Shown: positions 2,711 to 20,000, numbered from the stretch's first letter. The stretch is DNA of 20,000 nt from an uncultured virus (IMG/VR IMGVR_UViG_2645727837_000002) (IMGVR_UViG_2645727837_000002:59967-79966), one strand, 5' to 3'. Numbers and translations are program-made. Notes: generated by a model from the letters alone, not told the origin.

Positions 2711-3239
2711 AAAATACATCGAAGGGTTCGAGGGAATCCCGTACGTCGAAGGCCGCGACGATTGCTACGGCCTCGTGCGCAAATGGTTGGACAAGACCTA
2801 TGGAATGAAGTTGACGAACTACGCTCGACCGTGCGCGTGGGAAAACGACGGCTTCAATCTGCTCGGCGACTACTTTAACCGTGAGGGCTTTGTCCTCATC
2901 AATACGCCACTGAATCGCTTGCAGATCGGCGACCTGTTGATGATGCACGTCGCCAGTAGGTCCGGCATCGCGAACCACATCGGCGTCTACGTCGGCAATC
3001 AGTACGTGTTGCATCACCTGTATGGCCAAGTCTCGAAAGCCGACCCACTGAACGACCGGTGGAAGAACCGCGTGCTCGATGTCATCCGGCATCCGGACAT
3101 CGCAGCGAAGAATCAGGAACAAGCAGAGTCGGTCGATTTCATGACCCTCCTGCCACCACACTTGAGAGAGAAGTATGAACGACGACTTGTTGAAACTCTG
3201 GACTCCCCTGACCGAACGGTGCGGCTTCCTCCTAAATGA
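2697..3239 (+). CDS. NlpC/P60 tail-tip protein (peptidase half of lambda gpK-like)
   Basis: ATG at 2697 with GGAG upstream. 'PYVEGRDDCYGLVR' carries the catalytic Cys and 'NHIGVYVGNQYVLHH' carries the His. Confidence 0.85.
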   Translation: MSLYEKYIEGFEGIPYVEGRDDCYGLVRKWLDKTYGMKLTNYARPCAWENDGFNLLGDYFNREGFVLINTPLNRLQIGDLLMMHVASRSGIANHIGVYVGNQYVLHHLYGQVSKADPLNDRWKNRVLDVIRHPDIAAKNQEQAESVDFMTLLPPHLREKYERRLVETLDSPDRTVRLPPK

Positions 3240-4129: not shown

Positions 4130-7100
4130 ATGATTGTCGAAGAAGAACGCCCTATCCAGAGCATCCGTGGCGCGAGCGGCGGTGGCTCCAGCTCGCCCAC
4201 GCGAACGGACGACAACCTGTTTTCCCGAGACGTCGTCGAGATCGTCCTTGGTCTGTCTCAAGGCCCGATTCGAGGGCTGGTAGACGGCATGAAGACCTTC
4301 TCTGTCGGCGGGACGCCGCTCATGTCGCAGGACGGATCGCTGAACTTCAGTTCGTTTAACCTCGGCGTCAAGCTCGGCACCGCGCACGACTCGCCGGTCA
4401 ACTACGTCCTCGGGGGCGAAAGCTCGAACACCCAGGTCGGCACACGTCTATTTCAAGGGACGTGGGTCAACCGTCAGACCGACCAGTCGCTGAAGGGCGT
4501 TATCGACCAGCTGCAAGTGCGGATGCAGTTCAACGTCCTTTACATCCAGAACAACGACGGCTCCTTCAACAACACGGCGCGCTTCCGAATTCAGTATCGC
4601 CCGGCGTCCAGCTACGCCGCGTGGTCCGAGGTTCAAGGTGGACTGATCAAGGTGACGGGCAAGACCACGAGTGGCTACATGGTCGACTACGCGTGGGACG
4701 TGCCTCGCATCAATGACAACTGGGTGATACGGGTACTGAAGGAGAATCCGGACGCCAGTACGACGGAATTTTGTGACCTTACCTGGGAAAGCTTCCAGAT
4801 GATCACGAAAGGGAACCGCTCGTACAACCAAGTCGCGCTCCTCCATCTGGTCGCCAAGGCGACGAGCCAGTTCAGCTCGATCCCGGACTTCTCCGGCATT
4901 TATGACGGGCTGGAGATCCTGGTTCCGACGAACTACAACGGCGACATGCACTCGTACGACGCGAGCGGCCCGTGGAATGGGACGTTCAAGCTCGCATGGA
5001 CGAACAACCCGGCGTGGATTCTTTACAACCTCATCATGAACCCCACGTGGGGTCTCGCGAAGTATTACCCGTGGATCACGTGCAACCGCTTCGATTTTTA
5101 CGACGCGGGCCGGTGGTGCGACGAGATGGTCCCGGACGGCCGCGGTGGCTGGCAACCGCGCTACACCTTCAACCTCGCTCTGACCGACCAGCAAACCGGT
5201 CTCGACATGCTGAAGTATGTCGCCGGCAGCTTCGGCGCGGTTATCTTCGACGACGCGACTGGGATGGTCCATCTGCGCGTCGACCGGTGGGAAGAACCGA
5301 CCTTGATGTTCACACCCGAGAACGTGACGCCGGAAGGCTTCAGCTACACGTTCACGGACATGTCGACACGATACAACGACTACGAGGTTCAGTTCGTCAA
5401 CCCCGACATCGACTGGAACGTCGACCATCGGCGCGTCCCGAACGAAGAACACATCGCCCTCAACGGCAGCATTCCCTACCAGTTTCAGGCGATCGGCTGC
5501 ACGAACGAGCACGAGGCTGTTCGTCGTGCCACCTACCAGCTGATCACGTCGACCACCGAGTGTGCGACGGTGTCGTTCGTGACCGCGCGTCTCGGCCGCG
5601 TCATCGACCCGTACAAGCCGATCTACGTCGCCGACCCGATCACCGGCTGGTCGTCTGGTGGCCGGATCAAGTCGATCTTCAACAACAAGATCTACCTGCG
5701 AGACCCGATCTACTTTACAGTCAATCAGAACTACAACCTGCGGCTCCAGTCCGTCGACGGGTTGTCGAATTTCGTCGTTACCCCCGGCAAGATCGGGTCC
5801 GTGACCGAGCTGACGATCGTGAGCGGCATCATTCCGCCGAACATCCCGGATCGCACCGTCTTCACGATCGAGGACAACGGTGGGTTCGGGATCGCGAAGC
5901 CCTTCCGTACGATCGCGATCGAGCCGGTGGACAACCAGCCTGACACCTACAAGGTTACGGCTGTCGAAATCAACATCAACAAGCAGGCCGCAGCGGACAA
6001 CTGCGTGCCGATCGGCAGCAAGCAATATTCGTTCAAAAACCCGTTGATCCCTCCCCCGCCGACGAACATGGTCATGGCGTCCGGTACGGAGCAGCTGATC
6101 ATCGGTCAGGACGGCTCGATTCAGGCTCGTATCCTCGTATCCTGGGACCCGCCTGCAAACGCGATCGTTAAGCGCTACGACGTGCAGTGGAAGGAGAGTT
6201 CGCAGTCGACGTGGCTCACCGCGAGCACGACCGGCGAAAGCGTGTTCCTTGGTCCTTGCAAGAGCGGTGTCGACTACGACATCACGGTGTGGGCGATCAG
6301 CACGTTCGATTACCGCAGCTCGCAGCTGTCGACGTGGAACTATCGCTGCGTCGGGAAGGATGAACCGCCGAGCAACGTAACGAACTTCAACGTCATCCGC
6401 CGTCAGAACGACATCCTGCTGAAGTGGGACCCGATCCCCGATCTCGACCGCGCCGGTTACGAGATTCGCCTTGGCACGTCGTGGGAGACTGGAACGGTTC
6501 TCGTGACTGACTATGCAGCAACGCAGTTCGCATGGACGACGGACACAGGCGGGGCATACTCGTTCATGATCCGCGCGATCGATACGAGCCGTAACTTCTC
6601 GCCGATCCCGACGATCCAGACGATCGCACTGTATGGCCCGTCCTCAGTACGTGGCGTCATCGCTGTTCAGTCGTCGAACCGGATCGAGATGAGCTGGAAG
6701 CCGAACCCGGAAGACAACATTCTCGACTACGAGATCCGTGAGGGTGACACGTGGGCGACAGCCGTGTTCGTTGCAAAGACGAAATCTACAAGCTTCGGTC
6801 TTACGGCCGGCGCAGGTGGTACACGCAAGTTTTGGCTGAAGTCAATCGCCGCCCCTGGCATCTACTCGGACAAGGCGACCTTCGTTACTACCGACGTCGC
6901 TCAACTCGAAAACACAAACATCGTGTACGAGTCGGACGAACTGTCGAAAGGCTTCACCGGCATGCGGTACAACATGGTCGTCTACGGAAATTCTTTGCGG
7001 ATGGATGACGGGAAGGCGAAGGCAGAGTACATCTTCAGCGTGTCGCTCCCGACAAGCTTCCGTGCGCAGAATACGCTCTTCATTGGTCTCGACGCGATCG

Positions 7101-7735
7101 TCGACTTCACCATGCGATGGAACGACGCAACGTTCCCGTGGGACGACGCCAGAGCACAGATGCCGTGGGCCGCAGCGGGCGACATCTCGTCGATCAACTA
7201 CCGCGCCGAGATTGCCACGCTCACGGCACTACCGCCTGACGTGCTTTATGCGATCAAGCTCGACAATACGCTCGGATTCTCCGGCCCCGGTGAGGATGGA
7301 TCGGTCACGGAGCAGCAGACGGTTAGCTACCGCGCTGGGAAGTATGGCTCGGGCCTTTTCGTGCAAACTGCGCCGCTCCAACCGGTGCCAACTCACGTGA
7401 CATTCGACGTCAATATCCCGAACGTGTTCTCGACTAGCTTTTGGGTCATTCCGTACGACGACAACGACGATACATGGTCCAGCTTCTGCGGACGGAACGG
7501 TGCGCAAATCACGATCGGCTATCAAGCGTCCACGATGAGTGTCTTTGCGATCGACAACAACGGCAAGAAGATTTCCGTCCCGATCAACCTTGAAGTCGGT
7601 GAACGCTACTTCATCGCTATTTCGCAGGATACGAATACGCGCACGTTGTACGTCGGCCAGGAGGGCGGATCGGTATCCCGTGGAACCCTCGATGTCCAAG
7701 GTATCGGCCAAACCATCAACTACAGTTTGTACTGA
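4130..7735 (+). CDS. Central tail fibre / tip attachment protein, lambda gpJ-like, with FN3-like repeats and a beta-rich C-terminal domain
   Basis: 1201 aa. gpJ-like motifs 'LSQGPIRGL', 'WNGTFKLAWTNNPAWILY', 'WCDEMVPDGRGGWQPRYTFN' and 'AIGCTNEHEAVR'. Three FN3-like segments (VSWDPP..YDVQW; LKWDP..GYEIR; MSWKP..DYEIR). Confidence 0.9.
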   Translation: MIVEEERPIQSIRGASGGGSSSPTRTDDNLFSRDVVEIVLGLSQGPIRGLVDGMKTFSVGGTPLMSQDGSLNFSSFNLGVKLGTAHDSPVNYVLGGESSNTQVGTRLFQGTWVNRQTDQSLKGVIDQLQVRMQFNVLYIQNNDGSFNNTARFRIQYRPASSYAAWSEVQGGLIKVTGKTTSGYMVDYAWDVPRINDNWVIRVLKENPDASTTEFCDLTWESFQMITKGNRSYNQVALLHLVAKATSQFSSIPDFSGIYDGLEILVPTNYNGDMHSYDASGPWNGTFKLAWTNNPAWILYNLIMNPTWGLAKYYPWITCNRFDFYDAGRWCDEMVPDGRGGWQPRYTFNLALTDQQTGLDMLKYVAGSFGAVIFDDATGMVHLRVDRWEEPTLMFTPENVTPEGFSYTFTDMSTRYNDYEVQFVNPDIDWNVDHRRVPNEEHIALNGSIPYQFQAIGCTNEHEAVRRATYQLITSTTECATVSFVTARLGRVIDPYKPIYVADPITGWSSGGRIKSIFNNKIYLRDPIYFTVNQNYNLRLQSVDGLSNFVVTPGKIGSVTELTIVSGIIPPNIPDRTVFTIEDNGGFGIAKPFRTIAIEPVDNQPDTYKVTAVEININKQAAADNCVPIGSKQYSFKNPLIPPPPTNMVMASGTEQLIIGQDGSIQARILVSWDPPANAIVKRYDVQWKESSQSTWLTASTTGESVFLGPCKSGVDYDITVWAISTFDYRSSQLSTWNYRCVGKDEPPSNVTNFNVIRRQNDILLKWDPIPDLDRAGYEIRLGTSWETGTVLVTDYAATQFAWTTDTGGAYSFMIRAIDTSRNFSPIPTIQTIALYGPSSVRGVIAVQSSNRIEMSWKPNPEDNILDYEIREGDTWATAVFVAKTKSTSFGLTAGAGGTRKFWLKSIAAPGIYSDKATFVTTDVAQLENTNIVYESDELSKGFTGMRYNMVVYGNSLRMDDGKAKAEYIFSVSLPTSFRAQNTLFIGLDAIVDFTMRWNDATFPWDDARAQMPWAAAGDISSINYRAEIATLTALPPDVLYAIKLDNTLGFSGPGEDGSVTEQQTVSYRAGKYGSGLFVQTAPLQPVPTHVTFDVNIPNVFSTSFWVIPYDDNDDTWSSFCGRNGAQITIGYQASTMSVFAIDNNGKKISVPINLEVGERYFIAISQDTNTRTLYVGQEGGSVSRGTLDVQGIGQTINYSLY

Positions 7736-7736
7736 T

Positions 7737-8198
7737 ATGGCACACGTAATTTCCGATATCACCATCTCGAAGAAGGTGCTCGATGACGACGGCTTCCTCG
7801 CGCTGCTCACGTCGGACAGCCCGACCGGCTATGCCCCATTTCAACCGTTCGTGCAGGGCGACTACGAGTATCAGACCGCCCTCTTCCGCATCTCGATGAA
7901 CTCGACTTCCGGTGACCGTGGCGTGATCAACAAACTGAGCGTTGTCGTCGACGTTCCCGATATGTTCGACAGCGGCGACAACATCATCGACGGAACGACA
8001 CCGACGCGCATCTTCTTTACGCGTCCATTCCACGTCGCACCGAAGGTGACCCTGACCGTGCAGAGCGCGAGCGACCCATGTACCGCGAAACTTGTCGCCG
8101 GCTCGGTCACGCGCACGCATTTCGACTGTTTCCTTGAAAGGGTCTCTGATAAGGCAAAGATCGACGGCGCTTTGACCTGGGCCGCTCACGCTTACTGA
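7737..8198 (+). CDS. J-associated tail protein (153 aa)
   Basis: ATG 1 nt after the J stop. 'FVQGDYEYQTALFR', 'VDVPDMFDSG', 'IFFTRPFHVAPKVT' and terminal 'WAAHAY' resemble beta-rich tail-tip/fibre adaptor C-termini. Confidence 0.65.
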   Translation: MAHVISDITISKKVLDDDGFLALLTSDSPTGYAPFQPFVQGDYEYQTALFRISMNSTSGDRGVINKLSVVVDVPDMFDSGDNIIDGTTPTRIFFTRPFHVAPKVTLTVQSASDPCTAKLVAGSVTRTHFDCFLERVSDKAKIDGALTWAAHAY

Positions 8199-8227
8199 AA
8201 TCCCTTGGGCGCTCTGGCCAGCGCTCG

Positions 8228-8258
8228 TAAAATTCGTCTTGCTAACGGACACCACCAC
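8228..8258 (+). promoter_or_regulatory. Putative -10-like element (TAAAAT) plus CACCACCAC leader motif before the fibre gene
   Basis: TAAAATTC at 8228-8235 and CACCACCAC at 8250-8258. The same pair recurs before the endolysin gene. No convincing -35 was seen. Confidence 0.35.
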
Positions 8259-8259
8259 G

Positions 8260-9753
8260 ATGCAGAACTACACACAGATTCCAGACAGCCAGCGGGTATC
8301 CGACTCGCTCGCTCCGCTGCTCAACAACGATCTCACGGCGATTTCGCGCAACTCTGGCGACTCCTTTCCGATCACTGGACTCCAGATCGGTATGCCGTAC
8401 CTCAGCACGTCGCAGAACAAGCTCTTCCGGCTCGCGAGCCTGACGCCGGTCACATGGGTGGTCGAAATCGACTACAACCGTTCGATCGCATACCAGGACA
8501 ATCTCGACCAGGTTGCGGCGTCAGCAAACAGCCGTGTCCTCAAAAGCGGCGACAACATGACCGGCCCGCTCACGCTCTCGGGCGACCCATCGCAGGCGTT
8601 GCATGCCGCGCCGAAGCGGTACGTTGACGCGCAGGCGCAGGCGGCGACCACCGCGGCGAACAACCGTGTGCTGCGCTCTGGCGACCAGATGAACGGCCCG
8701 CTCACGCTCTCTGGCGACCCGTCGCTGCCCTACCACGCCGCGACGAAGAATTACGCCGACTACCTCTACAACTCGCTGAACAACGCCAAGCTCGGCCGCA
8801 ACGGCGACACGGTGGCCGAGCTTTACAACAATGGGTGGTTCCGCTCGAACGGTCAAGTTGGCTGGTACAACCAAACCTATGGCGGCGGCATCTATATGAA
8901 CGACGGGGGCTACGTCAAGGTTTACGGTGGCAAGGGATTCGCGACTGATACGCACACTCTCGAACAGGGCACGGGCGGAATCTGGACGTCGCGCTATGGT
9001 TGGCTGGAGAACTGCTTCGCCGGCAAGGGCGCTGAAGACCGCCTAAACTCGGTCGGCACGCTAGACAGCGGCGACGGCTGGCATCCGACGCAGCCGAATC
9101 TCCCGTGGTGGGGTGCCCCCGGTAACGGCGTCATTGCACCAGCGGCCTTCTACCTGAAACGGTCCGGCAGTCAGGTTCAGCTCGTGCGTATGTGGGGAAA
9201 CTGCAACTGCAACTGCGCCTGCACATGCTTCCCAGTCGGCACGCGGATCATGATGGCTGACGGCTCGTGGAAGGCCGTCGAGCATGTTCAGATCGGCGAC
9301 ATGCTCATGACGCCGCTTGGACCTGAAGCGGTGCTCGACATCGAGACACCGCAACTCGGCGACCGCAAGATGATCGGCTTCGAAGACGGCTCCCTCTTCT
9401 GGACCGACGATCACGCCTTTTGGACCCGCCGCGACGGTGCGCAGGCCTTCGGTGTCTACGACAAACAGTCGTGGCTCCGCGGCGTCGAGCTGGGCGTCGT
9501 GAAGGGTTTGCCGAACAACGACGACATTCGACTATTGGACGATCGGTGGGATGAGTTCGCGCACGTGAGTGGATGGAAGCGCAACCGCGTCGTCGCGCAC
9601 ACCCCCCCGGCCGACACCAAGGTTTACCTACCGATCGTCGGCGGATGCCACATGATCATCGCCGAAGGTTACGTCGTCTCGGCTGGCGCAAATGGGTTTG
9701 ACTTCGATTACAACACCTTCGAATGGAAAGGACTCAGCCATGTTGGTGCATAA
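8260..9753 (+). CDS. Tail fibre protein with C-terminal (Cys-x)n motif and Hint (intein-like) domain
   Basis: ATG at 8260 (497 aa; TTG at 8239 is an alternative). Two 'SGDxMxGPLTLSGDP...HAAxKxYxD' fibre repeats. Segment 'GWFRSNGQVGWYNQTYGGGIYM'. NCNCNCACTC at 9199-9228. Hint block A 'CFPVGTRIMMADGSWKAVEHVQIGD' from 9226, block B 'TDDH' at 9403-9414, C-terminal 'VYLPIVGGCHMIIAEGYVVSA' at 9622-9684. Confidence 0.85.
   Translation: MQNYTQIPDSQRVSDSLAPLLNNDLTAISRNSGDSFPITGLQIGMPYLSTSQNKLFRLASLTPVTWVVEIDYNRSIAYQDNLDQVAASANSRVLKSGDNMTGPLTLSGDPSQALHAAPKRYVDAQAQAATTAANNRVLRSGDQMNGPLTLSGDPSLPYHAATKNYADYLYNSLNNAKLGRNGDTVAELYNNGWFRSNGQVGWYNQTYGGGIYMNDGGYVKVYGGKGFATDTHTLEQGTGGIWTSRYGWLENCFAGKGAEDRLNSVGTLDSGDGWHPTQPNLPWWGAPGNGVIAPAAFYLKRSGSQVQLVRMWGNCNCNCACTCFPVGTRIMMADGSWKAVEHVQIGDMLMTPLGPEAVLDIETPQLGDRKMIGFEDGSLFWTDDHAFWTRRDGAQAFGVYDKQSWLRGVELGVVKGLPNNDDIRLLDDRWDEFAHVSGWKRNRVVAHTPPADTKVYLPIVGGCHMIIAEGYVVSAGANGFDFDYNTFEWKGLSHVGA
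8527..8760 (+). repeat. Two intragenic fibre-shaft repeats (34 aa each, 132-bp period)
   Basis: 8527-8628 encodes NSRVLKSGDNMTGPLTLSGDPSQALHAAPKRYVD and 8659-8760 encodes NNRVLRSGDQMNGPLTLSGDPSLPYHAATKNYAD. Confidence 0.9.
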
Positions 9754-10450
9754 GGTACTCATCCCCGACGATCTGACGGATGAGCAGCGCGCCCACGCGT
9801 ACGGCATCGTCACTATCATTCCGACACCTACCGGTTTCACTATGCAGTCGACGGACCTGAGCCTTTACTGGCAGTTCGACTTGAATAAGGTGGAGCACGG
9901 TAATGACGTCCTGCATCTAGTGCGTGCTCGTAACGGGCAGTACGTAGTCGTGTGGGGCAGCGACATTCACGAGTCAAAGGACAGCTTGTCGTCAGCTCTT
10001 CTTCGAAAGAACATCGATTCGTTTATGCCGCTCGTTCTCATCGGTATCAACGAAGAGATGAGCGCCTACACGGCGGTCTTTTTCTGCCACACTGTCGAGC
10101 CGACCAACTCAACCCCAACCGTGGACAATTCGGATGAAAGCGGCGACATGGTCCTAAAGCGGCTCATGCCAGCAATTGCGCCCGTTATCGACCGATGGCA
10201 TGCGAAGCACAAGCTGCTGAAAGACATCAAGACAAACGACGCACTCGCCGCGCTCGAAGCGCAGGTGGATCTGCTCACCGAGCTGCTGTTTTCAATCCTG
10301 CCGGCCGACGCATTTCCATCTGATAAACGACAGAAACTCCTTGACGCTGGTGTACTGAAAATGAAGGATGGGGACCTCGCTTTCAACGACATGGTCGCCT
10401 TCAAGACCACGCTCCGCGCGCGGCAGGCGACGTACCTAGCCACCAGATGA
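9740..10450 (+). CDS. Hypothetical protein (236 aa) between the Hint fibre and the radical SAM gene; possible chaperone or accessory factor
   Basis: ATG at 9740 with AAGGA upstream. It overlaps the fibre stop by 14 nt and has an ATGA overlap with the next gene. Beta-rich N-half and helical C-half ('ALAALEAQVDLLTELL'). Confidence 0.7.
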   Translation: MLVHKVLIPDDLTDEQRAHAYGIVTIIPTPTGFTMQSTDLSLYWQFDLNKVEHGNDVLHLVRARNGQYVVVWGSDIHESKDSLSSALLRKNIDSFMPLVLIGINEEMSAYTAVFFCHTVEPTNSTPTVDNSDESGDMVLKRLMPAIAPVIDRWHAKHKLLKDIKTNDALAALEAQVDLLTELLFSILPADAFPSDKRQKLLDAGVLKMKDGDLAFNDMVAFKTTLRARQATYLATR

Positions 10451-11799
10451 CCACCTTCCGCCTGAAGACGGTCGACGCCTCTGGCGTCGGCCGTGACTTT
10501 TTCTACAACAACCAACGAAGCACCCTCACCGACCACCGCGGTTACGACGTGGTGCCCGAGCGCCCCAGCGAGCCGCGCGCGCAGGCCGTGCCCCCCGGGC
10601 GCAAGGACCGCGTTGTTCGCACGCTGAAGATCCAGCTCGGCCTCTCGTGCAACTACAGCTGCGAATACTGCTCGCAACGATTCGTGCCGCACGCGGACCA
10701 AACCAACCCCGGTGACGTCGACGTGTTCATGTCCCACCTGATGGCAAACTGCTATCTCACGGAGGACGCGACTGTCGAGTTTTGGGGTGGCGAGCCGATG
10801 GTGTACTGGAAGACGCTCAAACCGCTCGCTGAGCGGCTGCGGACGCGTTACCCAGGCATCACCCTTCGGATGATCACGAACGGCTCCCTGATCGACCACA
10901 TGAAGGCCGGGTGGCTCATTTCGATGGGGTTCACGATCGGCATCTCGCACGACGGGCCGGGGCAGAAGGCACGGGGTCAAGACCCCCTCGATAACCCCTT
11001 GACGCGCGAAGCGATCCTCATGCTGTACCAGCGCCTTCGCCCGCTGAACCGGATCTCCTTCAACGCGATGCTGCACAAAGACAGTACGTCGCGGCGCGCG
11101 GTGCGCGACTATTTCATCAAGCTGACGGGCGACACCGACGTGCCGATCGGCGAAGGCATGTTCGTCGACGCGTACGACGAAGGTGGCCGCTCGATGTCGT
11201 TTCACGACGCGCACGAGCACGTCCGCTACCGCGCCCGCGCCTTCGACGAGCTGAAGAGCGGCAACGCGCTCAACTTCGACAGCGTCACGCAGAAAATCGT
11301 CGACTTCGGCGAGTCCGTGGTCACTCGGCGCGAAGCGCGCACGCTCGGCCAGAAGTGCGGCAGCGACCGCGCTGACACCCTGACGATGGACCTGAAGGGC
11401 AACGTGCTGACGTGTCAGAACGTGTCAGCGGTAGCGGTAGCGCCGAACGGCCAGCCTCATCTCGCCGGCAACGTGCAGGACATGGATACGGTCCAGCTCA
11501 AGTCCTCGCGCCACTGGTCGACCCGCGAGCACTGCAACACGTGTCCCGTACTTCAGCTCTGCAAGGGCAGCTGCATGTTCCTCGAAGGCGACTTGTGGGA
11601 TGTCACCTGCGAGAGCGCGTACAGCGACAACGTCGTATTCCTGGCCACGGCTCTCTACGAGCTGACTGGCTGCACCCTTCAGCGTATCGAGCCATTGACT
11701 GGCACGCTGCCTGAGCACCGCCAGATCGTCTTCGGACCTCTGGCCAACAAGCGGACCACCACCCGCAAAATCATCCAGATCAAAACGGAAACGCCATGA
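10447..11799 (+). CDS. Radical SAM enzyme with SPASM domain (peptide/protein maturase-like)
   Basis: CNYSCEYC (CxxxCxxC) at 10648-10671, 'FWGGEP', 'ITNGSL', 'ISHDG'. Seven-Cys SPASM pattern C-x18-C...C-x2-C-x5-C-x3-C-x11-C at 11356-11610. Confidence 0.95.
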   Translation: MTTFRLKTVDASGVGRDFFYNNQRSTLTDHRGYDVVPERPSEPRAQAVPPGRKDRVVRTLKIQLGLSCNYSCEYCSQRFVPHADQTNPGDVDVFMSHLMANCYLTEDATVEFWGGEPMVYWKTLKPLAERLRTRYPGITLRMITNGSLIDHMKAGWLISMGFTIGISHDGPGQKARGQDPLDNPLTREAILMLYQRLRPLNRISFNAMLHKDSTSRRAVRDYFIKLTGDTDVPIGEGMFVDAYDEGGRSMSFHDAHEHVRYRARAFDELKSGNALNFDSVTQKIVDFGESVVTRREARTLGQKCGSDRADTLTMDLKGNVLTCQNVSAVAVAPNGQPHLAGNVQDMDTVQLKSSRHWSTREHCNTCPVLQLCKGSCMFLEGDLWDVTCESAYSDNVVFLATALYELTGCTLQRIEPLTGTLPEHRQIVFGPLANKRTTTRKIIQIKTETP

Positions 11800-12137
11800 A
11801 CGATCAACAAGCCACTCCCCTGATGAACGAAGGACAGATGATGCACCACGTGCTGACGCAACAGCGCAACGAGCTGGCCGATCGCCTCGCTCACGCGAGC
11901 GTCGCAGCTGGTCAAGCCGAACAGCAAGTGCAAGCTCTGGCCGCAGCAAACGCAACTCTGCAATCGGCGCTCGACGAGGCGAACGCGGCACTCGAAGCAA
12001 CGAAGAACGCACTGGTCGCGAGCCAATCTCGCGCAGACCAGCTTCAGAAGAACCTCGACGACGCCAACCGGAAGCTTGCTGCGCATCAGCGACCGATTGA
12101 AGGCGCGTCTACGTCGGTTGATCCGATGCCCGTGTAA
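11796..12137 (+). CDS. Small coiled-coil hypothetical protein (113 aa)
   Basis: ATGA overlap with the rSAM gene. Ala/Gln/Leu heptad pattern. Confidence 0.7.
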   Translation: MNDQQATPLMNEGQMMHHVLTQQRNELADRLAHASVAAGQAEQQVQALAAANATLQSALDEANAALEATKNALVASQSRADQLQKNLDDANRKLAAHQRPIEGASTSVDPMPV

Positions 12138-12150
12138 TCGCACGAAAAGG

Positions 12151-12181
12151 TGCTAAGTGAACCACTTAGGTTCACTTAGCA
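12151..12181 (+). terminator. Perfect 13-bp inverted repeat; probable terminator (possibly bidirectional) or operator
   Basis: TGCTAAGTGAACC-actta-GGTTCACTTAGCA, preceded by AAAAGG and followed by TTTCC, 13 nt after the cassette's last stop. The U-tract is weak. Confidence 0.6.
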
Positions 12182-12223
12182 TTTCCAGTGCAAAACTCTT
12201 TGTATCTGCGTAAACCCCAACCT

Positions 12224-12262
12224 TAAAATTCTCGGCACTCACCACCACCACACGAGTCCGAG
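12224..12262 (+). promoter_or_regulatory. Putative -10-like element and structured leader before the endolysin
   Basis: TAAAATTC at 12224-12231. Stem CTCGG(c)ACTC / GAGTCCGAG encloses an ACCACCACCACAC loop and ends immediately before the ATG at 12263. Confidence 0.4.
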
Positions 12263-13209: not shown

Positions 13210-13589
13210 AGGTATGGGCGATGTTCCTCGCCCTCACGTGGTCTCTCGTCACCTACGCGGCAACGCGTAGCGACGTGTCTTTCGGACGCGATCTGGCCAG
13301 CATCCCGGTCATCGCGTACGTGATCACGGTCATCCTCAGCAGCATCGGCGGCGCAGCATCGACGCTGCAAAAGCTGTCGAGCGCCGAGGATCTGTCGCGC
13401 TGGAAGCTGCACGTCGCGCGCGACATGGTCTCCTCGATCGCAGCCGGCCTGCTGATGTTCTTCATCGCCGAATCGTTCCGCTGGGATTCCGCTCAAGAGG
13501 CCGCGGCCATCACTGTCGCCGGCTATGGCAGCTCGAAGCTGTTCGACGCGGTCATGACCCGCATTCTGCAAAAGGTGGACACCGCATGA
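13194..13589 (+). CDS. Putative holin
   Basis: GTG start. Several hydrophobic helices: 'ITVILSSIGGAASTL', 'SSIAAGLLMFFI', 'AAAITVAGYGSSKLFD'. Located between the endolysin and the spanins. Confidence 0.7.
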   Translation: MQRTIKVWAMFLALTWSLVTYAATRSDVSFGRDLASIPVIAYVITVILSSIGGAASTLQKLSSAEDLSRWKLHVARDMVSSIAAGLLMFFIAESFRWDSAQEAAAITVAGYGSSKLFDAVMTRILQKVDTA

Positions 13590-14101
13590 AGCTGACCGCC
13601 ATTGCCGCGCTCTGCGCCGCTCTCGTGAGCGGCGCTGGCGCTTTCTACTTCACCCGCGACCACTACGTCGCGCTCATAGCCGAGAACGACGATCGGCAGC
13701 AGAAGGCCCTGCGTGCCGCTCAAGCGCGAGCGGACGCGGCAGCGGCCTTCGCTACCACGACGTCGAACCTGCTGGTCACGCAGATCTCGACCGACTACGA
13801 AAGGAAGCTCAACGATGCGAAGTCTCAAGCCGACCGCGATATTGCTGCTGCCCGCGCTGGTGCTCTGCGCCTGCGCGACCGAGCCGCAACCTGTGGCAAT
13901 CAACCGTCCGAAGGTGCAGCTGGCCCCGGTGCCGGCGTATCTGCTGACACCGGAGGAGCCGAACTTTCGCTGCCGGCTACTGAATTTCTTCTCGGCGAAG
14001 CCGGTCGAGCTGACGAAATCGTGCTCAGGCTCAACGCCTGCGAAGCCGTCGTCCGGAGCGACCGAGACGTTCTCGATCGTCTGAACGCGGGTGAGCAATG
14101 A
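13586..14101 (+). CDS. Inner-membrane spanin (Rz-like)
   Basis: N-terminal TM segment, Ala-rich coiled coil, 'AGALRLR', C-terminal 'RADEIVLRLNACEA'. Contains an embedded lipoprotein gene. Confidence 0.85.
   Translation: MKLTAIAALCAALVSGAGAFYFTRDHYVALIAENDDRQQKALRAAQARADAAAAFATTTSNLLVTQISTDYERKLNDAKSQADRDIAAARAGALRLRDRAATCGNQPSEGAAGPGAGVSADTGGAELSLPATEFLLGEAGRADEIVLRLNACEAVVRSDRDVLDRLNAGEQ
13815..14084 (+). CDS. Outer-membrane spanin lipoprotein (Rz1-like), embedded in Rz in the +1 frame
   Basis: ATG at 13815 with AAGGAAG upstream. Signal peptide and lipobox 'MRSLKPTAILLLPALVLCA-C'. Pro-rich mature region. Confidence 0.8.
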   Translation: MRSLKPTAILLLPALVLCACATEPQPVAINRPKVQLAPVPAYLLTPEEPNFRCRLLNFFSAKPVELTKSCSGSTPAKPSSGATETFSIV

Positions 14102-14715
14102 GTGCGGCTTCCCTCCCCCTCGCCCCGACCAACCCGGACGGCCAACCGCTCATCCTGATGATGAGTCCGGTCTACAACAACCTCGGACAGCTGACCCCGA
14201 TGAAACTGCTTTACGGCCGTGGAGCGCCGGCCAACAACGTCGGTAACGACGGCGACTCGTACATCAACCTGGACAACAGCTTCATGTTCGGCCCGAAGAC
14301 GGGCGGCGTTTGGCCGAACGGCTACAGCATCAAGGGCGACAAGGGCGACAAAGGCGATACGGGCGACGTCAACAAGACGCCGATCGCGCGTATGAACGTG
14401 ACCGGCAACGGTCTCGACCTGGACCTGTCGACCGGCATCGGCTGCTTCAACGCGACGATCAACGCCCCGCAGACGGCAATCACGATCAGCAACCCAGCAA
14501 CGGATGCGAACTTCGTGCGCTCGTTCTCGCTCGTGCTCAAGCAGGGCACCGGCTCGAACAAGGTCAACAGCTGGCCGGCAATCATCAAGTGGAACGGTGG
14601 CGTCCCGCCCGTCCTGTCGTACGCGCAAGGCGTGAGCGACGCGTTCATGTTCGAAACCTACGACGGTGGCAAGTCGTACGTCGGCTACTTCGTCGGCAAC
14701 AACATTCCTGCGTAA
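14098..14715 (+). CDS. Small fibre/adaptor-like virion protein with a short collagen-like repeat
   Basis: 'GRGAPANNVGNDGDSYIN...FGPKTGGVW'. KGDKGDKGDTGD at 14332-14367. C-domain 'FSLVLKQG...WPAIIKWNGGVPPVLS....DAFMFETYDGG' is of a type common in phage fibres. Confidence 0.65.
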   Translation: MSAASLPLAPTNPDGQPLILMMSPVYNNLGQLTPMKLLYGRGAPANNVGNDGDSYINLDNSFMFGPKTGGVWPNGYSIKGDKGDKGDTGDVNKTPIARMNVTGNGLDLDLSTGIGCFNATINAPQTAITISNPATDANFVRSFSLVLKQGTGSNKVNSWPAIIKWNGGVPPVLSYAQGVSDAFMFETYDGGKSYVGYFVGNNIPA

Positions 14716-17529
14716 ATGAACCGGCTCTACCTGTCCCGTCAGTCCCTCAACCAGCTCGCCGCGAACGCGAACTCGATGCTCGACGGCCTCATGCAGTTCG
14801 TCGATCGTCACACGAAAGACGACCCGGACACGGGTCAGGACTACATGATCCTCAACAGCAAGAGCGTGCTCTGCAACAACATGCACTACGAGACGGGGAG
14901 CGTCTGGTACACCCCGAACGGCACGGCCACGACCGAAGGTCAGGCCCTGTACATCCTCGGCCTCTACTACGCATGGAAAGGCACCGGCAAGCGCTCCTAC
15001 CTCGACCGCGCCGTGCGTGCGATCGACGCGTACCTGGACCTCTTCTACGCCGGCCAGCCGACGCCGACCACGCCGCAGATCTACCGCTCGAACTGGATCA
15101 TCAACGGCAAGCGCCCGTTTCAGGCCTTCGGCCCGCTGGACCCGAACAACCCGGACAGCCCCGGTGGCAAGGGCATTCAGGTGCAGTTCACGAACGGCAT
15201 GGGCCAGATCCCGACCGGCGACCCGTACAACGGCCAGCTCATCACGCGTCTGTATTCCGTCTACAACGGGAAGCTCTCGTACGACTCCGTGCGCTCGGGC
15301 GTCAATGCTGGTGGCACGGTCTACCCGTTCGCTTCGTACGTGACGTACGACGGCGTGCGCCACAACGCGGATCAGGACGCGATCGACCCGAACGGCGACC
15401 CACCGGGGACGATCCGCCTCGTCGACACGACGTTCACCGGCACGGCGCTGGTGAACTACGCGAACATGACCGGCCCGATGATCGGCCGCAACGAGCCGTT
15501 CGATGTCTGGCCGATCTGGATGGCGTTGTCTCCCGACCAGTGGGGCAACTCGATCGACTCGGAGCAGTGGTTCGCCGAGGCCTGCTACTTGATGTTCCAG
15601 GAGACTGGCAACCCGCGCTACTTCAACGCGTTCAACGCCTCAATCTACACCATCAACGACGCGACCGACCTTCAAGCCGACGGCTTCTATTTCCGCCAGG
15701 ACACGAAGGCCGCTGACCCGTTCAACGTGGGCATCGCGTACGACTGGGAATACCTCGGCGACGCGATGGCGACGGTCAACCGCGACAGCAGCGGCTACAT
15801 CCACGTGTCGAAGACCGCTGAATCGAACGTGAACAAGGAGAGCACGGTCGCGCTCGAACAGATCGCCGTCTACACGCGCATCGACTCCAGCAAGACGGCG
15901 ATGGTCAACACCATCGGCATCAACACGCCGAAGGCTCGCATCGAGTTCCTGACGCGGATGAAGACCGACCTCCTGAGCGACGGCCGGCAGTATCGCTATG
16001 CCCTGCCCTCGAACGGTAGCGTGACGCCGACGCAGATGGTGGTCCCGTTCGGCCAGATGGTCACGGCGACGCAATCGGACGGCCAGCAGCACGCCATGCT
16101 CGACGGTTCGAGCTTCGTGCCGTACGGCAACGCCGGCTACACCACCACGTACGAGGGCGGCATCCTCGGCGACGCTGGCCGCGCTGACTGGATCGGCACG
16201 GTCAACATCAATGACAGCACTTCCGGCGTCGTCGCCGGCTTCTGGCTCGCAACACCGACCACCCGCGCCCTCACATCGTTGACGTACCGCGTGAACAGCG
16301 GCGAGATCTGGTTGAAGGTCACGGACGCGCTTGGCAATAAGTATCAGCGCGTGCTGCCCTCCGGTGGTTGGACCACGCTGCCGCTGAGCTGGTCCGACTT
16401 CACGCTCGTGCCGAATCAGGCGGCAGGCACGCCGGCCGCACCGACGCCGAATGGTGCGATGACGCAGATCGAATTCATCACGAACAACGGCCAAGGTGGT
16501 TCGGTCTCGACGTACTGCTGGGGCGAGATCCCGCAGAAGCTCGTGTCGGTCAACGACTACTCGACCGAGTGGTTCATCCATGTGAAATGCCAGCCGGCGA
16601 TGGAGATGGCCGTGGGAGACGTGTATGCGTCCAACCCTGCCCCGCTCGCGCTGAAATACTCACCTGGAGTGCTTCCCTTCACGACGAAGTATTCGGTTTC
16701 CCGCGCACGGAAGGATTACTGGCGAGGAACACCGTACACCGGCTACCAGTATGGGCCGATGTGGGTACTCTCGGGCAAGACCCAGTATTACACCAACTGC
16801 ATCGCCTTCTACTACGACGCGCAGGAAGCATACGCGAAGAAGATCGGTGTCATGGGTCCGGTTGCGCCGCTCTATGTGTGGCCGCGCTACGACCAGCTCG
16901 ATCAAGGCCCCATCGACACGTTCGCATGGGGTACGGACAAACCGTACCCGTGGGCGGGGTACAACGCGCGCGCGTTCTTCGCAGGTTGCCGGATGTGGCA
17001 GTTGCTCGTGCAGCAGGGTTTCCCTGTCGATACCCGGCTCATCACATTCTGCGAGCGCTATGCGAAGTATCTGGCTGATTTCCAGGATGCAAACGACAAC
17101 CTGACGCCGACTGAGTTTCCGCCTGACAAGCCGGCGTTCAACGATGACTACGACCACACCGGCCATATGACGGCGCTGTACATGGCGGGTGCAGTCTGTA
17201 TGAAGTTCGCCGGTTCGAAGTCCACCTACGTCGATCGCGTGATCAACGGCTGTATGGTCGAATTCACGCGCACGCAGGTGATCGAAGACCCGACCGGCCC
17301 CTACTCCGACATGAGCGGTGCGTACTCAAGCTGGTCGCATGGTCACTACTTCTACGGATTTTGGGCGGGCGAGATCATGCGCGCGCTAGGACTCTTGATG
17401 ATGTGGAATCTGCGCAATCAGCAAGGTGCAGGCATCCAAATCGAGGAATCCAACATCCTGCTTGAAAACGCGTCCGGACATATCGCCGCAGAAGACGGCA
17501 CTTTGATCAAAACAGAGACTTCCCTATGA
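14716..17529 (+). CDS. Large (937 aa) putative virion-associated glycosidase, GH8-like with inserted beta domains
   Basis: 'TTEGQALYILG' (from 14929) resembles the GH8 SEGQxY catalytic-Glu motif. 'GNSIDSEQWFA' (from 15544) resembles the GH8 NxAxDxD region. Helical aromatic-rich ends and a beta-rich middle. Confidence 0.55.
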   Translation: MNRLYLSRQSLNQLAANANSMLDGLMQFVDRHTKDDPDTGQDYMILNSKSVLCNNMHYETGSVWYTPNGTATTEGQALYILGLYYAWKGTGKRSYLDRAVRAIDAYLDLFYAGQPTPTTPQIYRSNWIINGKRPFQAFGPLDPNNPDSPGGKGIQVQFTNGMGQIPTGDPYNGQLITRLYSVYNGKLSYDSVRSGVNAGGTVYPFASYVTYDGVRHNADQDAIDPNGDPPGTIRLVDTTFTGTALVNYANMTGPMIGRNEPFDVWPIWMALSPDQWGNSIDSEQWFAEACYLMFQETGNPRYFNAFNASIYTINDATDLQADGFYFRQDTKAADPFNVGIAYDWEYLGDAMATVNRDSSGYIHVSKTAESNVNKESTVALEQIAVYTRIDSSKTAMVNTIGINTPKARIEFLTRMKTDLLSDGRQYRYALPSNGSVTPTQMVVPFGQMVTATQSDGQQHAMLDGSSFVPYGNAGYTTTYEGGILGDAGRADWIGTVNINDSTSGVVAGFWLATPTTRALTSLTYRVNSGEIWLKVTDALGNKYQRVLPSGGWTTLPLSWSDFTLVPNQAAGTPAAPTPNGAMTQIEFITNNGQGGSVSTYCWGEIPQKLVSVNDYSTEWFIHVKCQPAMEMAVGDVYASNPAPLALKYSPGVLPFTTKYSVSRARKDYWRGTPYTGYQYGPMWVLSGKTQYYTNCIAFYYDAQEAYAKKIGVMGPVAPLYVWPRYDQLDQGPIDTFAWGTDKPYPWAGYNARAFFAGCRMWQLLVQQGFPVDTRLITFCERYAKYLADFQDANDNLTPTEFPPDKPAFNDDYDHTGHMTALYMAGAVCMKFAGSKSTYVDRVINGCMVEFTRTQVIEDPTGPYSDMSGAYSSWSHGHYFYGFWAGEIMRALGLLMMWNLRNQQGAGIQIEESNILLENASGHIAAEDGTLIKTETSL

Positions 17530-18644
17530 GCGACATGAAAATCTCGGAGTTCAACGAACTCCAGAATCCAGTTGATGACGCAATGCTCGCGGGAGCATAT
17601 GGCGGCAACAACTTCAAGTTGAAGCTTTCGACACTGCGCGCGTGGTTCGGAATCGTGACGCAGAAGGCGGCAGGCTTCATGAGCGCGGACGACAAGACCA
17701 AGCTCGACGGTATTGCATCACAAGCGACAAAGAACAGCGCGGACGCGACGCTTCTAAACCGGCAGAACCACACTGGCCAGCAAGACGCGAGCACCGTGGC
17801 CGGTCTCGCGAAAGTGGCAACGAGCGGCAGCTACAAGGATCTGAAAGACGCCCCGCCCACTGGCATCCCGGTCGCAACAAGCACCCAGCTTGGTGGCGTG
17901 AAACTCGGCCCTGGCCAGACAACCGATGGCGATGGCACATTGCGGATCTCGCGCTTCGCCGAGCGTGCAGCATTTGATCCGGTGATGAAGGCCGGCACGG
18001 TCGCGCTCTCGAACAACAACCTGACCGCTACCGTCCCTGGCGGGAAGCAAGTCGTAGCGCTCGGAACGACCGGCATGAAAGCGGGAAAGTGGTACTTCGA
18101 AGCCACATTCGTCTCGGGCACATCCAGCGGGAACGCCGCGGTCGGCGTGTGCCCGCGTAACGAGGCGATGGACGCTCAGGTCGGATATGACGACGGTCAG
18201 GGGACGATCGGGAAATTCCAGTCGAGCGGGAACGTGTATCGAGACGGTGGCACGAACTCCGGGGCGGGCGCGGCATTCAACGTCGCAGGGGACACAGTCG
18301 GCGTAGCGATCGACGCGACGTCGCGCACGGCATGGTTCAGAGTCAACGGCGGCGTCTGGAACGGTAGCGCTTCGAACGACCCGGCAACTGGCGTGGGTGG
18401 TTACCCCATCGGCGGCACGTTCCCGCTCTTCCCCGCCATCTGCTCCGATGTTGCGTCCGTGTGGACCGTAAACTTCACTGGGCCATTCGCAGCAGCTTCC
18501 CCGACTGGATTCATCCCGTGGTCGCAAGGCAGCTTGCAGCTCTCCCTCGGGGATTGCGCAGACGTCGACCTGACCGGTGCAAAGGCTGGCGACACGCTGA
18601 AGCTCTCAACTGCCGGTGTCTGGAAGCCATCCTCGGTCGCGTAA
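17526..18644 (+). CDS. Fibre-like protein with SPRY/concanavalin-like domain
   Basis: N-terminal 'MSDMKISEF'. Fibre motifs 'AGFMSADDKTKLDGIA', 'LLNRQNHTGQQ', 'LAKVATSGSYKDL', 'PVATSTQLGGVK'. SPRY-like 'GKWYFE...VGV...GDTVGVAIDA...WFRVNG'. Confidence 0.7.
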   Translation: MSDMKISEFNELQNPVDDAMLAGAYGGNNFKLKLSTLRAWFGIVTQKAAGFMSADDKTKLDGIASQATKNSADATLLNRQNHTGQQDASTVAGLAKVATSGSYKDLKDAPPTGIPVATSTQLGGVKLGPGQTTDGDGTLRISRFAERAAFDPVMKAGTVALSNNNLTATVPGGKQVVALGTTGMKAGKWYFEATFVSGTSSGNAAVGVCPRNEAMDAQVGYDDGQGTIGKFQSSGNVYRDGGTNSGAGAAFNVAGDTVGVAIDATSRTAWFRVNGGVWNGSASNDPATGVGGYPIGGTFPLFPAICSDVASVWTVNFTGPFAAASPTGFIPWSQGSLQLSLGDCADVDLTGAKAGDTLKLSTAGVWKPSSVA

Positions 18645-19223: not shown

Positions 19224-20000
19224 ATGAAGATCGCCACCTGGAACGTCAACTCCCTGAACGTGCGCAAGCAGCACGTGCTCGACTGGCTCGCGCAGAGCGA
19301 CGTCGACGTGCTGTGCCTTCAGGAGCTCAAGATCCCCGACGAGAAGTTTCCGCGCGAAGCGCTCGAAGCGGCCGGCTACCGCAGCTGGTTCGCGGGCCAG
19401 AAAACCTACAACGGCGTCGCGATCCTCGCGCGCGCGAGCCTGCCGTTCGACGAGACGGATATCGTTCGCAACATCCCCGGCTTCGAGGACGCGCAGCAGC
19501 GCCTGATCGCCGCGACGATCGACGGCGTGCGGATCGTGTCCGCGTACTTCCCGAACGGCCAGGCGCTCGACTCGGACAAGTTCGTCTACAAGATGCAATG
19601 GCTCGACGCGCTGCAGGCATGGCTGAAGGACGAGCTGCAACGCTACCCGAAGCTCGCGCTGCTCGGCGACTACAACATCGCGCCCGAAGATCGCGACGTG
19701 CACGATCCGGCGAAATGGGAAGGCCAGAATCTGGTGTCGCCGCAGGAGCGCGCGCATTTCGCGCAGCTCGTCGCGCTCGGCTTCGTCGACGCGTTCCGAC
19801 GCTTCGAGCAACCCGAGAAGACCTTCACGTGGTGGGATTACCGGATGCTCGCGTTCCGCCGCAACGCCGGGCTGCGGATCGATCACATCCTGCTGTCGCC
19901 GGCGCTCGCCGAAACCTGCACGAGCTGCACCGTCGACCGCGTGCCGCGCACGTGGGAGCAGCCGTCCGACCACACGCCCGTCGTCGCGCAGCTCGGCTGA
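19224..20000 (+). CDS. xthA: Exodeoxyribonuclease III (host gene)
   Basis: 'MKIATWNVNS', 'LCLQELK', 'GQKTYNGVAI', 'YFPNG', 'GDYNIAP', 'FTWWDYR', 'GLRIDHIL', 'SDHTPV'. Complete 258 aa, with visibly more GC-biased codon usage than the phage genes. Confidence 0.97.
   Translation: MKIATWNVNSLNVRKQHVLDWLAQSDVDVLCLQELKIPDEKFPREALEAAGYRSWFAGQKTYNGVAILARASLPFDETDIVRNIPGFEDAQQRLIAATIDGVRIVSAYFPNGQALDSDKFVYKMQWLDALQAWLKDELQRYPKLALLGDYNIAPEDRDVHDPAKWEGQNLVSPQERAHFAQLVALGFVDAFRRFEQPEKTFTWWDYRMLAFRRNAGLRIDHILLSPALAETCTSCTVDRVPRTWEQPSDHTPVVAQLG

Follow-up and report, generated by a model that had tools for sequence, protein, structure and literature searches.

The window considered here is a stretch of 20,000 nucleotides, the final 20 kb of an IMG/VR provirus record (IMGVR_UViG_2645727837_000002) that spans 79,966 bp and has a completeness rating of 98%. 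Its subject is a cassette of four overlapping genes encoding a tail fibre precursor with a short run of alternating asparagine and cysteine residues (the Asn-Cys ladder), a protein referred to as ORF2, a radical S-adenosylmethionine (SAM) enzyme with a SPASM domain, and a coiled-coil protein (Table 1). Computation shows that this enzyme belongs to a phage-specific family of SPASM radical SAM proteins that is genetically locked to (Asn-Cys)n ladders. The element carrying the cassette is a Burkholderia prophage, a JWF-like temperate siphophage of ~80 kb, and its nearest cultured relative, Achromobacter phage JWF, carries gp028-gp031 in identical order and with identical overlaps, the radical SAM enzymes sharing 56% identity. 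A prophage of Burkholderia paludis MSh1 also has a copy, with 96% identity at the enzyme. A first-pass annotation made from the sequence of the window had described four genes with overlaps of 14 nt, ATGA and ATGA between the tail-tip and lysis genes, bounded by a TAAAAT leader and a 13-bp hairpin; all of these features are present, TAAAAT lying at 8229-8234. The last ATGA couples the enzyme translationally to the coiled-coil gene.

Table 1 Features of the cassette, with positions counted from the first nucleotide of the window
Feature	Position	Strand	Length or remark
Leader motif GTAAAATTC	8227-8235	+	inside the 61-nt gap 5' of the fibre gene
Tail fibre precursor	8260-9753	+	497 aa
Asn-Cys ladder NCNCNCACT	9199-9225	+	fibre residues 314-322
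Hint domain	9226-9750	+	fibre residues 323-497
ORF2 (family F4)	9740-10450	+	236 aa
Radical SAM/SPASM enzyme	10447-11799	+	450 aa
Coiled-coil protein	11796-12137	+	113 aa
Closing hairpin	12148-12184		perfect 13-bp core at 12151-12181

Fibre precursor, Hint domain and enzyme

The fibre precursor consists of an N-terminal fibre part, a PilV/Shufflon_N-like distal domain (Shufflon_N 28 bits, cut-off 27.5), the ladder and a C-terminal Hint domain. Its homology with fibres already known and its position after gpJ identify it as a tail fibre: it matches the tail fibre family phrog_16641 (E 2e-10), its residues 1-315 resemble, in tblastn searches, genes annotated as tail fibre or tailspike in phages of Streptomyces, Bacillus, Shewanella and Aeromonas, and its residues 1-310 share 53% identity with the JWF orthologue gp028. 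Cysteines occur at residues 252, 315, 317, 319, 321, 323 and 463, so that the ladder NCNCNCACT (N314-T322) holds four of them, and the alternating register runs on into Cys323, the first residue of the Hint domain. The motif thus stands directly before Hint, as the first-pass annotation had it. It is also the only Cys-dense motif outside the enzyme, since no other run of at least three alternating cysteines occurs in a real gene of the window, the sole other match being a spurious 50-aa frame inside gpJ.

Ladders of related loci follow a common pattern. Among 63 distinct ladders, drawn only from the enzyme-centred and ORF2-centred locus sets described below and so not selected for Asn, the positions between cysteines are taken by Asn (65%), Ala (17%), Asp (6%), Thr (4%), Gln (2%) and Gly (0.9%), and the number of cysteines ranges from 3 to 11 with a median of 5. 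The ladder almost always forms the last residues of its open reading frame (ORF), as in L028, which ends in ...YIRVNCNCNCNCNCNCNCNCNC before the stop codon, and what stands after it differs from protein to protein (nothing, K, GNG, GDA, STDC or TRGSL). Many ladder proteins are small (65-140 aa), and several of these small proteins have the domain preceding the ladder in common with the fibre of the window (GIWTSRYGWLEN, corresponding to QIWTANYGWLHD in L013, L016, L021 and L022). Among the representative loci, the ladder gene directly follows a Peptidase_S74 fibre gene in L016, L020, L022, L028, L034 and L039, and an S74 fibre is also encoded upstream in L040, L051 and L052; it lies two or three genes after gpJ in L013, L021 and L023, and after a T7-type fibre gene in L019. 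These settings indicate contigs of siphophage, myophage and podophage type. Homologous fibres that end at the ladder without a Hint domain occur in L021, L023, L054 and L102 and in P0037, a Cupriavidus fibre homologue ending in ...NNNCNCNCNCANN, and the annotated side tail fibre of RSP15 ends in NTNCQCGN, with two cysteines only. A ladder placed before Hint, on which the first-pass annotation was built, is therefore not the usual form, most ladders being found on small tip proteins or at natural fibre ends.

In Ralstonia phage RP12 (L003), an unannotated 65-aa ORF ending in NCNCNCACTRGSL lies at 2990-3187 between ORF074 and ORF075, ~1 kb 5' of the first of three radical SAM genes and ~4.7 kb 5' of ORF079, the closest homologue. 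ORFs of 67-82 aa (…NCNCNCNC…RG[SI][LC]) are found in L063, L071, L115 and L131, with the same layout of three radical SAM genes as in RP12.

The C-terminal part of the fibre scores 27 bits against Pfam Hom_end_hint, below the cut-off of 32.1, and its assignment to the Hint superfamily, of the bacterial intein-like (BIL)/hedgehog type, is based on the first cysteine (Cys1), a T-D-D-H set and a fold match. The AlphaFold2 model of the domain has a predicted local distance difference test score (pLDDT) of 74-97 per 10-residue block, and Foldseek places it closest to Tetrahymena BIL2 (E 1e-8, template modelling score 0.79), followed by inteins, a Clostridium BIL domain and hedgehog (1at0). Eight aligned Hint homologues keep Cys1 (CF[PL]xG[TS]) and a TxxH block, which in the window correspond to C323 and WTDDH, and end in GY(V/L)(V/M)(S/T)(A/G)G and a short variable tail. 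A terminal His-Asn and a C-extein are absent from all eight, the proteins ending 15-35 residues past the last Hint strand, and the domain is accordingly not an intein in the sense of one that splices. Such a residue set supports, in BIL and hedgehog domains, an N-S acyl shift with cleavage of the upstream bond alone. With Cys1 and TxxH kept and His-Asn missing, cleavage is expected only at the N-terminal junction: the domain has the residues that would carry out an N-S acyl shift at Thr322-Cys323, and none for C-terminal cleavage or splicing. The Asn-Cys dipeptide itself was also considered as an intein C-terminal splice junction, an idea that was dropped because most ladders have no Hint domain nearby.

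Sorting the enzymes into 58 lineages (85% identity) gives 10 with Hint directly after the ladder, 41 with natural C-terminal ladders only and 7 with neither, some of the last being cut contigs (e.g. L015 and L018). Hint-capped ladders appear at three places of the enzyme tree, namely the clade of the window and JWF with L203 nearby, L013, and L040/L042; the tree is a quick maximum-likelihood one with an arbitrary root, in which L068, L044 and L205 sit on long branches. Within the 11-row clade around the window (Shimodaira-Hasegawa-like approximate likelihood-ratio support 95), four rows have plain C-terminal ladders, L054 and L102 among them. The Hint cap is an optional add-on, and the Hint-less relatives of the fibre fit a removal of Hint that would expose the ladder as the mature C-terminus. 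P0038 and P0040, two secreted-looking proteins of 468-477 aa, carry a signal peptide and a proline-rich linker and close with a Hint domain of the fibre's family but have no ladder, which makes the domain a portable module for C-terminal autoprocessing.

The third gene had been described as a seven-Cys SPASM radical SAM enzyme, and this description is borne out. The TIGR04085 SPASM model scores 31.6 bits against a cut-off of 27, and all ten cluster cysteines are invariant in 20 homologues with identities down to 34%, both C68/C72/C75 of the CX3CX2C motif and the seven of the SPASM domain (304, 323, 363, 366, 372, 376 and 388). The protein matches phrog_1802, the phage radical SAM proteins, over residues 24-417 (E 4.3e-59, 201.8 bits); Pfam Radical_SAM stays below its cut-off (25.6 bits, 29.5 needed), and Fer4_12 exceeds it (24.8 against 22). 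The enzyme thus belongs to the radical SAM superfamily and to its SPASM subfamily. Its best resemblances in NCBIfam are PapB, the geopeptide maturase, QhpD and anSME (40-50 bits). It is not a member of the named maturase families compared, all of which have far higher cut-offs: PapB (NF047865, 49.3 bits, cut-off 340), QhpD (TIGR03906, 47.6, cut-off 453), anSME (TIGR03942, 43.7, cut-off 349) and the CrpC family (TIGR04463, 29.5, cut-off 525). The nearest sequences in the PDB, spanning E 7e-7 to 6e-4 overall, are 8vpo (E 7e-7), the anSME entries 4k36 and 4k37 (~8e-5) and CteB (5wgg). Only ~55 residues precede the core of the enzyme. Neither Pfam nor NCBIfam gave a match to a PqqD-like recognition element (RRE) of the kind found with peptides synthesised by ribosomes and modified after translation (RiPPs), in the enzyme or in ORF2, and the fold searches with ORF2 listed nothing RRE-like, although weak matches could escape such searches.

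Linkage of the enzyme to ladders and to ORF2

Searches with the enzyme led to 43 loci in IMG/VR, to 7 in genomes, of which 6 hold a real match, and to 3 phage records, which together with the window make 53 loci, 46 of them with at least 2 kb of upstream DNA. When a ladder is defined as N(Cx)≥2C in an ORF within 6 kb upstream on the same strand, it is found in 43 of these 46 loci and in 22 of the 24 enzyme clusters formed at 80% identity; the same motif occurs downstream on the same strand in none and on the opposite strand in one. The three misses are RSP15 with its two-Cys ladder, L018, whose contig begins just past the place of the ladder gene in its relatives L014 and L016, and L044, which has a 34%-identical enzyme and no ladder.

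The reverse search led to the same association. IMG/VR was scanned for the DNA pattern of NCNCNCNC, and 80 loci out of at least 121 matching stretches were considered, 44 of which hold a C-terminal ladder, that is, one read in frame in an ORF of 60 aa or more and lying at most 12 aa from its end. A radical SAM gene lies on the same strand at 40 of these 44 (downstream in 38, upstream in 2). Among the four misses, three loci continue for at most 739 bp downstream, and the fourth (L129) concerns a 96-aa frame whose reality is in doubt. At internal or short-frame ladders the enzyme is present in 2 of 15 cases, and where the pattern is not read as NC it is present at none of 21 loci. The co-occurrence of enzyme homologues with fibres ending in (CxC)n, with or without Hint, which the first-pass annotation had put forward as a check, therefore holds from either side.

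A third approach started from ORF2. AlphaFold2 models this protein with a mean pLDDT of 87.5 as a beta domain spanning residues 1-120, followed towards the C-terminus by a helical bundle that bears the motif LExQVDLL[TS]. Pfam, NCBIfam and PHROG contain no match to it or to 56 members of its family, Foldseek returned nothing at E ≤0.001 and the ESM Atlas no usable match. In VIA-align the best results, a stretch of helix (Z 6.5) and, for residues 1-117, SPP1 gp22 (Z 5.4), both fall in a range that the tool calls common. A HMMER scan of 1.84 billion representatives puts the number of relatives at 365 for E ≤1e-3 and at 101 for E ≤1e-10, and the 150 relatives listed measure 96-313 aa, most of them ~230-260 aa. 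The 56-sequence alignment offered no stretch conserved enough for a locus search, and two distant single relatives used as queries gave no IMG/VR locus; scanning IMG/VR with LExQVDLL[TS], taken from a 19-sequence alignment, yielded 47 loci in 19 ORF2 clusters (70% identity), of which, by contig name, 15 lie on contigs of the earlier sets and 32 are new.

In all 47 loci a radical SAM gene lies on the strand of ORF2, and in 46 the two genes abut, the enzyme's frame starting between -327 and +57 nt from the end of the ORF2 frame; in L221 the enzyme is encoded just upstream. A ladder is found upstream in 45 of the 47, the exceptions being L188, which starts inside ORF2, and L216, with 1.4 kb upstream. 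The ORF2 family is thus, by computation, locked to the radical SAM enzyme. In L019 and L048 two oxygenase-like genes part the ladder gene from ORF2 while ORF2 still abuts the enzyme gene, which indicates that ORF2 goes with the enzyme rather than with the fibre. The expectation that the enzyme would co-occur with the 236-aa gene is right in so far as ORF2 stands beside the enzyme in every locus found with it, but only 19 of the 95 enzyme-bearing loci of the first two sets carry ORF2. Cassettes without it have F3 (like RSP15 ORF047) or F8 in its place, and none of 27 representative loci combines ORF2 with either. In hhalign comparisons ORF2 is unrelated to F3 and F8 (probabilities of 0.1% and 0.3%), and F3 and F8 show a weak C-terminal match to each other (58%). 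As a guess, we propose that ORF2 is an adaptor or chaperone for the enzyme.

The linkage also bears on the possibility that the cassette yields a released peptide, such as a bacteriocin or signal, or that the enzyme is an unrelated accessory gene in the tail region. The size of many ladder proteins, 65-140 aa, resembles that of RiPP precursors, and a paper on a cyanophage, in the portion of its text available, places its radical SAM maturase among "antibiotic synthesis genes" (PMC12801897). However, the ladder of the window lies inside a 497-aa protein with a fibre N-terminus, where cleavage by Hint would free Hint and not the ladder, the ladder genes of three tail types come directly after a gene for a fibre or gpJ, and the scanned cassettes showed neither a peptidase nor an exporter gene. 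As the linkage is found in three directions, from the enzyme, from the ladder and from ORF2, a chance neighbour is excluded, and we regard both forms of this explanation as very improbable.

In many related cassettes the ladder gene and the radical SAM gene are separated by genes for one to four additional enzymes (L013, L019, L020, L039, L051, L052 and others). These are 2-oxoglutarate (2OG)-Fe(II) oxygenase-like proteins (F22 and F24), a fatty-acid-desaturase-like protein (F20), a protein like RSP15 ORF046 (F19) and a second radical SAM enzyme. Judged by these resemblances, they point to further tailoring of the ladder, for example hydroxylation, and the window, which has none of them, represents a minimal form of the cassette. 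The 2OG oxygenases in many cassettes are left unexplained by another view of the ladder, in which it serves, with its cysteines unmodified, as a metal- or Fe-S-binding tip element, the enzyme being linked to it for some other reason. Such a role would have parallels, as alternating cysteines in an extended strand put all thiols on one face, in the manner of the histidines of T4 gp37, whose needle has His-x-His iron sites, and iron-sulphur clusters occur in tail-tip proteins such as lambda gpL. Beyond the oxygenases, a metal site leaves unexplained the strong bias for Asn between the cysteines and the three-way tie to an enzyme of the peptide-modifying SPASM type, which is not a cluster-assembly factor; this explanation therefore appears improbable.

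The fourth gene has a narrower distribution. The coiled-coil protein has weak matches to coiled-coil families only, and phmmer finds homologues in seven loci beyond the window, all of the window's clade (L004-L007 and L047, and weakly L009 and L012); the N-terminus of JWF gp031 is similar to it by eye. The gene is specific to the JWF-like clade and probably not a core part, a correction to the first-pass annotation, which named it among the parts of the system.

A possible maturation of the fibre tip

Phages with Asn-Cys tips probably modify their host-binding fibre tips enzymatically, as far as gene content and gene order can tell. For the window, we lean towards the view that the cassette is a fibre-tip maturation module, in which the radical SAM enzyme and ORF2 would act on the ladder, Hint would remove itself, and a modified distal tip would be left. 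During late gene expression the enzyme would act on the ladder cysteines, with ORF2 as an adaptor or chaperone that replaces the missing RRE. The likeliest product would be thioether bridges from Cys sulphur to a carbon of the adjacent Asn, Ala or Asp, formed within one chain or between the chains of the fibre trimer. Hint would then excise itself by thioester hydrolysis, in analogy to Peptidase_S74 chaperone domains, and the mature fibre would end in the modified ladder, as most relatives do naturally. Because the C-termini of tailed-phage fibres are their distal ends, the ladder would come to lie at the extreme tip and would there stiffen, protect or shape the end that binds the receptor. 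Perhaps the thioester intermediate of Hint might even fasten the tip to a neighbouring chain or partner instead of just being hydrolysed. Extended to the whole family, a virion maturation pathway shared by all three tail types, with the enzyme stapling the Asn-Cys tip, lineage-specific helpers (the F4 and F3/F8 families and 2OG oxygenases) and, in some lineages, self-removal of Hint, is a tentative reading to which we give slightly less than even odds.

The choice of thioether chemistry draws on known maturases. PapB and QhpD make thioethers between Cys and Asp or Glu, and QhpD acts on a protein subunit. QhpD/QhpC and PapB/PapA are among the best NCBIfam resemblances of the window enzyme, yet they score far below their cut-offs, and their substrates and setting differ. 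According to the accessible part of its description, NxxcB forms a thioether between Cys sulphur and the beta carbon of Asn and also accepts Ala, Gln and Asp (PMC9389541). The likeness to the window lies in a radical SAM enzyme with auxiliary Fe-S clusters (PMC9389541) and in the acceptors, as the partners of Cys in the ladders are Asn, Ala, Asp, Thr and Gln. On the same partial account, and by description rather than by sequence, NxxcA differs in being a short leader-core peptide with a single NxxC from a quorum-regulated streptococcal operon, whereas the phage substrate has 3-11 strictly alternating Asn-Cys pairs that end a fibre or tip protein. CrpC of Methanococcus voltae, in the excerpted text of PMC13692751, installs several thioether (ranthionine) links on the large Cys-rich protein CrpA, and it resembles the window in pairing a SPASM radical SAM enzyme with a large substrate encoded next to it instead of a short peptide. 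As described there, CrpC has a predicted RRE, and none was detected in the window enzyme, which also scores far below the CrpC family cut-off (TIGR04463, as above); CrpA carries CxxQ/D motifs in 17-residue repeats and is a cellular archaeal protein, not a part of a virion. A SPASM maturase with a Cys-rich substrate is thus of a known kind, and what is new here is the virion fibre-tip setting, the substrate motif and the Hint cap.

Cross-links from Cys to Asn by thioether are our best guess by analogy, favoured because SPASM reactions on Cys-rich substrates are mainly thioether-forming and because the composition of the ladders fits the acceptors. Alternatively, the enzyme could act on the ladder by another chemistry, such as formylglycine formation, C-C or C-O cross-links, epimerisation or an MftC-type reaction at the C-terminus, in which case the tip would carry aldehydes or other groups instead of bridges. 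Scores of 44-49 bits for PapB, QhpD and anSME, against cut-offs of 340-453, mean that the sequence does not favour thioether formation over other SPASM chemistries, formylglycine among them: anSME is one of the nearest families both in NCBIfam (43.7 bits) and in the PDB (4k36/4k37, E ~8e-5), and the thioether synthases score no better. A free C-terminus could also matter, as nearly all ladders lie at most 12 aa from one or would be freed by Hint. Still, the motif familiar from anSME substrates (C/S-x-P/A-x-R) is absent from the ladders, the variable residues after the ladder argue against a reaction on one particular C-terminal residue, and Asn, Ala, Asp and Gln between the cysteines match the acceptor tolerance of NxxcB. 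Non-thioether chemistry is, in our estimation, unlikely, though it is the strongest of the competing explanations. Profiling of proximity in catalytic sites distinguishes sacti- from ranthi-synthases, going by the available section of PMC10288494.

The self-removal of Hint can likewise be set beside known systems. Cleavage of Peptidase_S74 fibre precursors has the C-terminal domain remove itself and expose the mature distal end, and in many related cassettes the ladder protein follows an S74 fibre. The window differs from it in having a Hint fold, a predicted thioester mechanism through Cys1 and no S74 match, and in that a Cys ladder would be exposed. With BIL and hedgehog domains it shares the fold (BIL2 as above, 2lwy and 1at0), Cys1 and TxxH, and the lack of splicing residues; it differs in having a phage fibre as the fusion partner of Hint, which comes directly after a Cys ladder in register with Cys1, with no adduct-recognition region identified. 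In its working the system resembles RiPP maturation, but it is not a RiPP by definition, since the presumed substrate is a 497-aa fibre rather than a short precursor and the cassette has no peptidase or exporter gene.

Several points weigh against a maturation module of this kind. That any ladder residue is modified we infer from gene linkage and family resemblance; for the first-pass annotation, which had already proposed modification of the tip, this means that the pairing of enzyme and ladder now has support from the linkage, while the reaction itself keeps the standing of a prediction. The low scores against named maturases give no preference to thioether chemistry as judged by sequence, and an RRE, which most RiPP maturases have, was not detected. 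The fold of ORF2 is not recognisable, and the protein is absent from most cassettes, where the unrelated F3 or F8 takes its place. Hint is not specific to the system, as it also caps the secreted, ladder-less P0038 and P0040. The AlphaFold2 monomer model has a pLDDT below 50 over the distal domain and the ladder and gives no geometry by which bridges within and between chains could be told apart. Finally, L044 has the enzyme without a ladder, and the ladder of RSP15 has only two cysteines.

Receptor-binding fibre tips decide the host range of phages, and to our knowledge they are regarded as polypeptides that undergo no change other than proteolytic trimming and the binding of metals. If true, a radical SAM step at such a tip would amount to virion maturation of a new kind and would extend RiPP-type chemistry to large viral structural proteins. 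Heterologous expression or engineering of such fibres would then need the enzyme and anaerobic Fe-S chemistry for a functional tip. In the literature searched there is no description of an Asn-Cys ladder or of a radical SAM enzyme acting on a phage fibre, and the JWF-citing literature examined, a set without the original JWF paper, makes no mention of the enzyme. The paper on RP12 and RP31 lists radical SAM genes without proposing a role (PMC5468394). Tip maturation would account for such phage genes, whether listed without function, as there, or read as antibiotic synthesis, as in the available text of PMC12801897, and the Asn-Cys ladder offers a simple sequence mark for finding such systems.

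Flanking signals and neighbouring genes

The late region runs from L-like, NlpC/P60, JAB and I-like tail-tip genes through gpJ (4130-7735; Pfam FNIII-A_GpJ and Phage-tail_3) and a 153-aa ORF (7737-8198) to the four-gene cassette and the lysis genes. The 153-aa ORF weakly resembles H-type lectins (E 3e-4, below the cut-off), and the C-terminal end of gpJ has a weak Laminin_G_3 or concanavalin-like match; from these resemblances, both may be carbohydrate-binding parts of the tail tip. On the 3' side of the cassette follow a glycoside hydrolase family 19 (GH19) endolysin, holins and Rz with an embedded Rz1, and then more tail-fibre-like genes.

A near copy of the leader, TTAAAATTC and then CACCACCAC, lies at 12223-12231 ahead of the endolysin gene. 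The arrangement of TAAAATTC followed a few bases later by CACCACCAC before an ATG is thus found both at the fibre cassette (8227-8259) and at the endolysin gene (12223-12262), and may represent a common late leader or promoter element. With up to one mismatch, TAAAATTC has 4 matches where 1.48 are expected, a number reached in 11 of 200 shuffles, so that the motif is not significant on its own. A promoter scan of the region gave no sigma-70-like site, and terminator-like sites are not above chance (5 found, 3.9 expected). The closing hairpin folds with -30.1 kcal/mol (z = -7.46), which none of 200 shuffles equals; it may be a terminator, with a T-run that is weak on the + strand. Another hairpin, of 12 bp and GC-rich, followed by GACTTTTTCT, lies at 10468-10494 inside codons 8-19 of the radical SAM gene and, from its position, could throttle expression of the enzyme relative to the fibre.

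Within the lysis genes, an Rz-like spanin gene at 13586-14101 (Pfam Phage_lysis, E 3e-10) contains in its +1 frame an ORF at 13815-14084 (MRSLKPTAILLLPALVLCAC...) that resembles an Rz1 lipoprotein wholly nested in Rz. A second tail-fibre-like gene set at 14098-18644, 3' of the lysis cassette, encodes proteins of 205 aa (phrog_9017 tail fibre, E 2e-23) and 937 aa (phrog_2871 tail protein, E 1e-235) and one of 372 aa with a SPRY domain; in JWF, too, fibre genes lie on either side of the lysis genes. The provirus record ends inside a gene of the endonuclease/exonuclease/phosphatase family (Pfam Exo_endo_phos, E 6e-33), which occupies 19224-20000.

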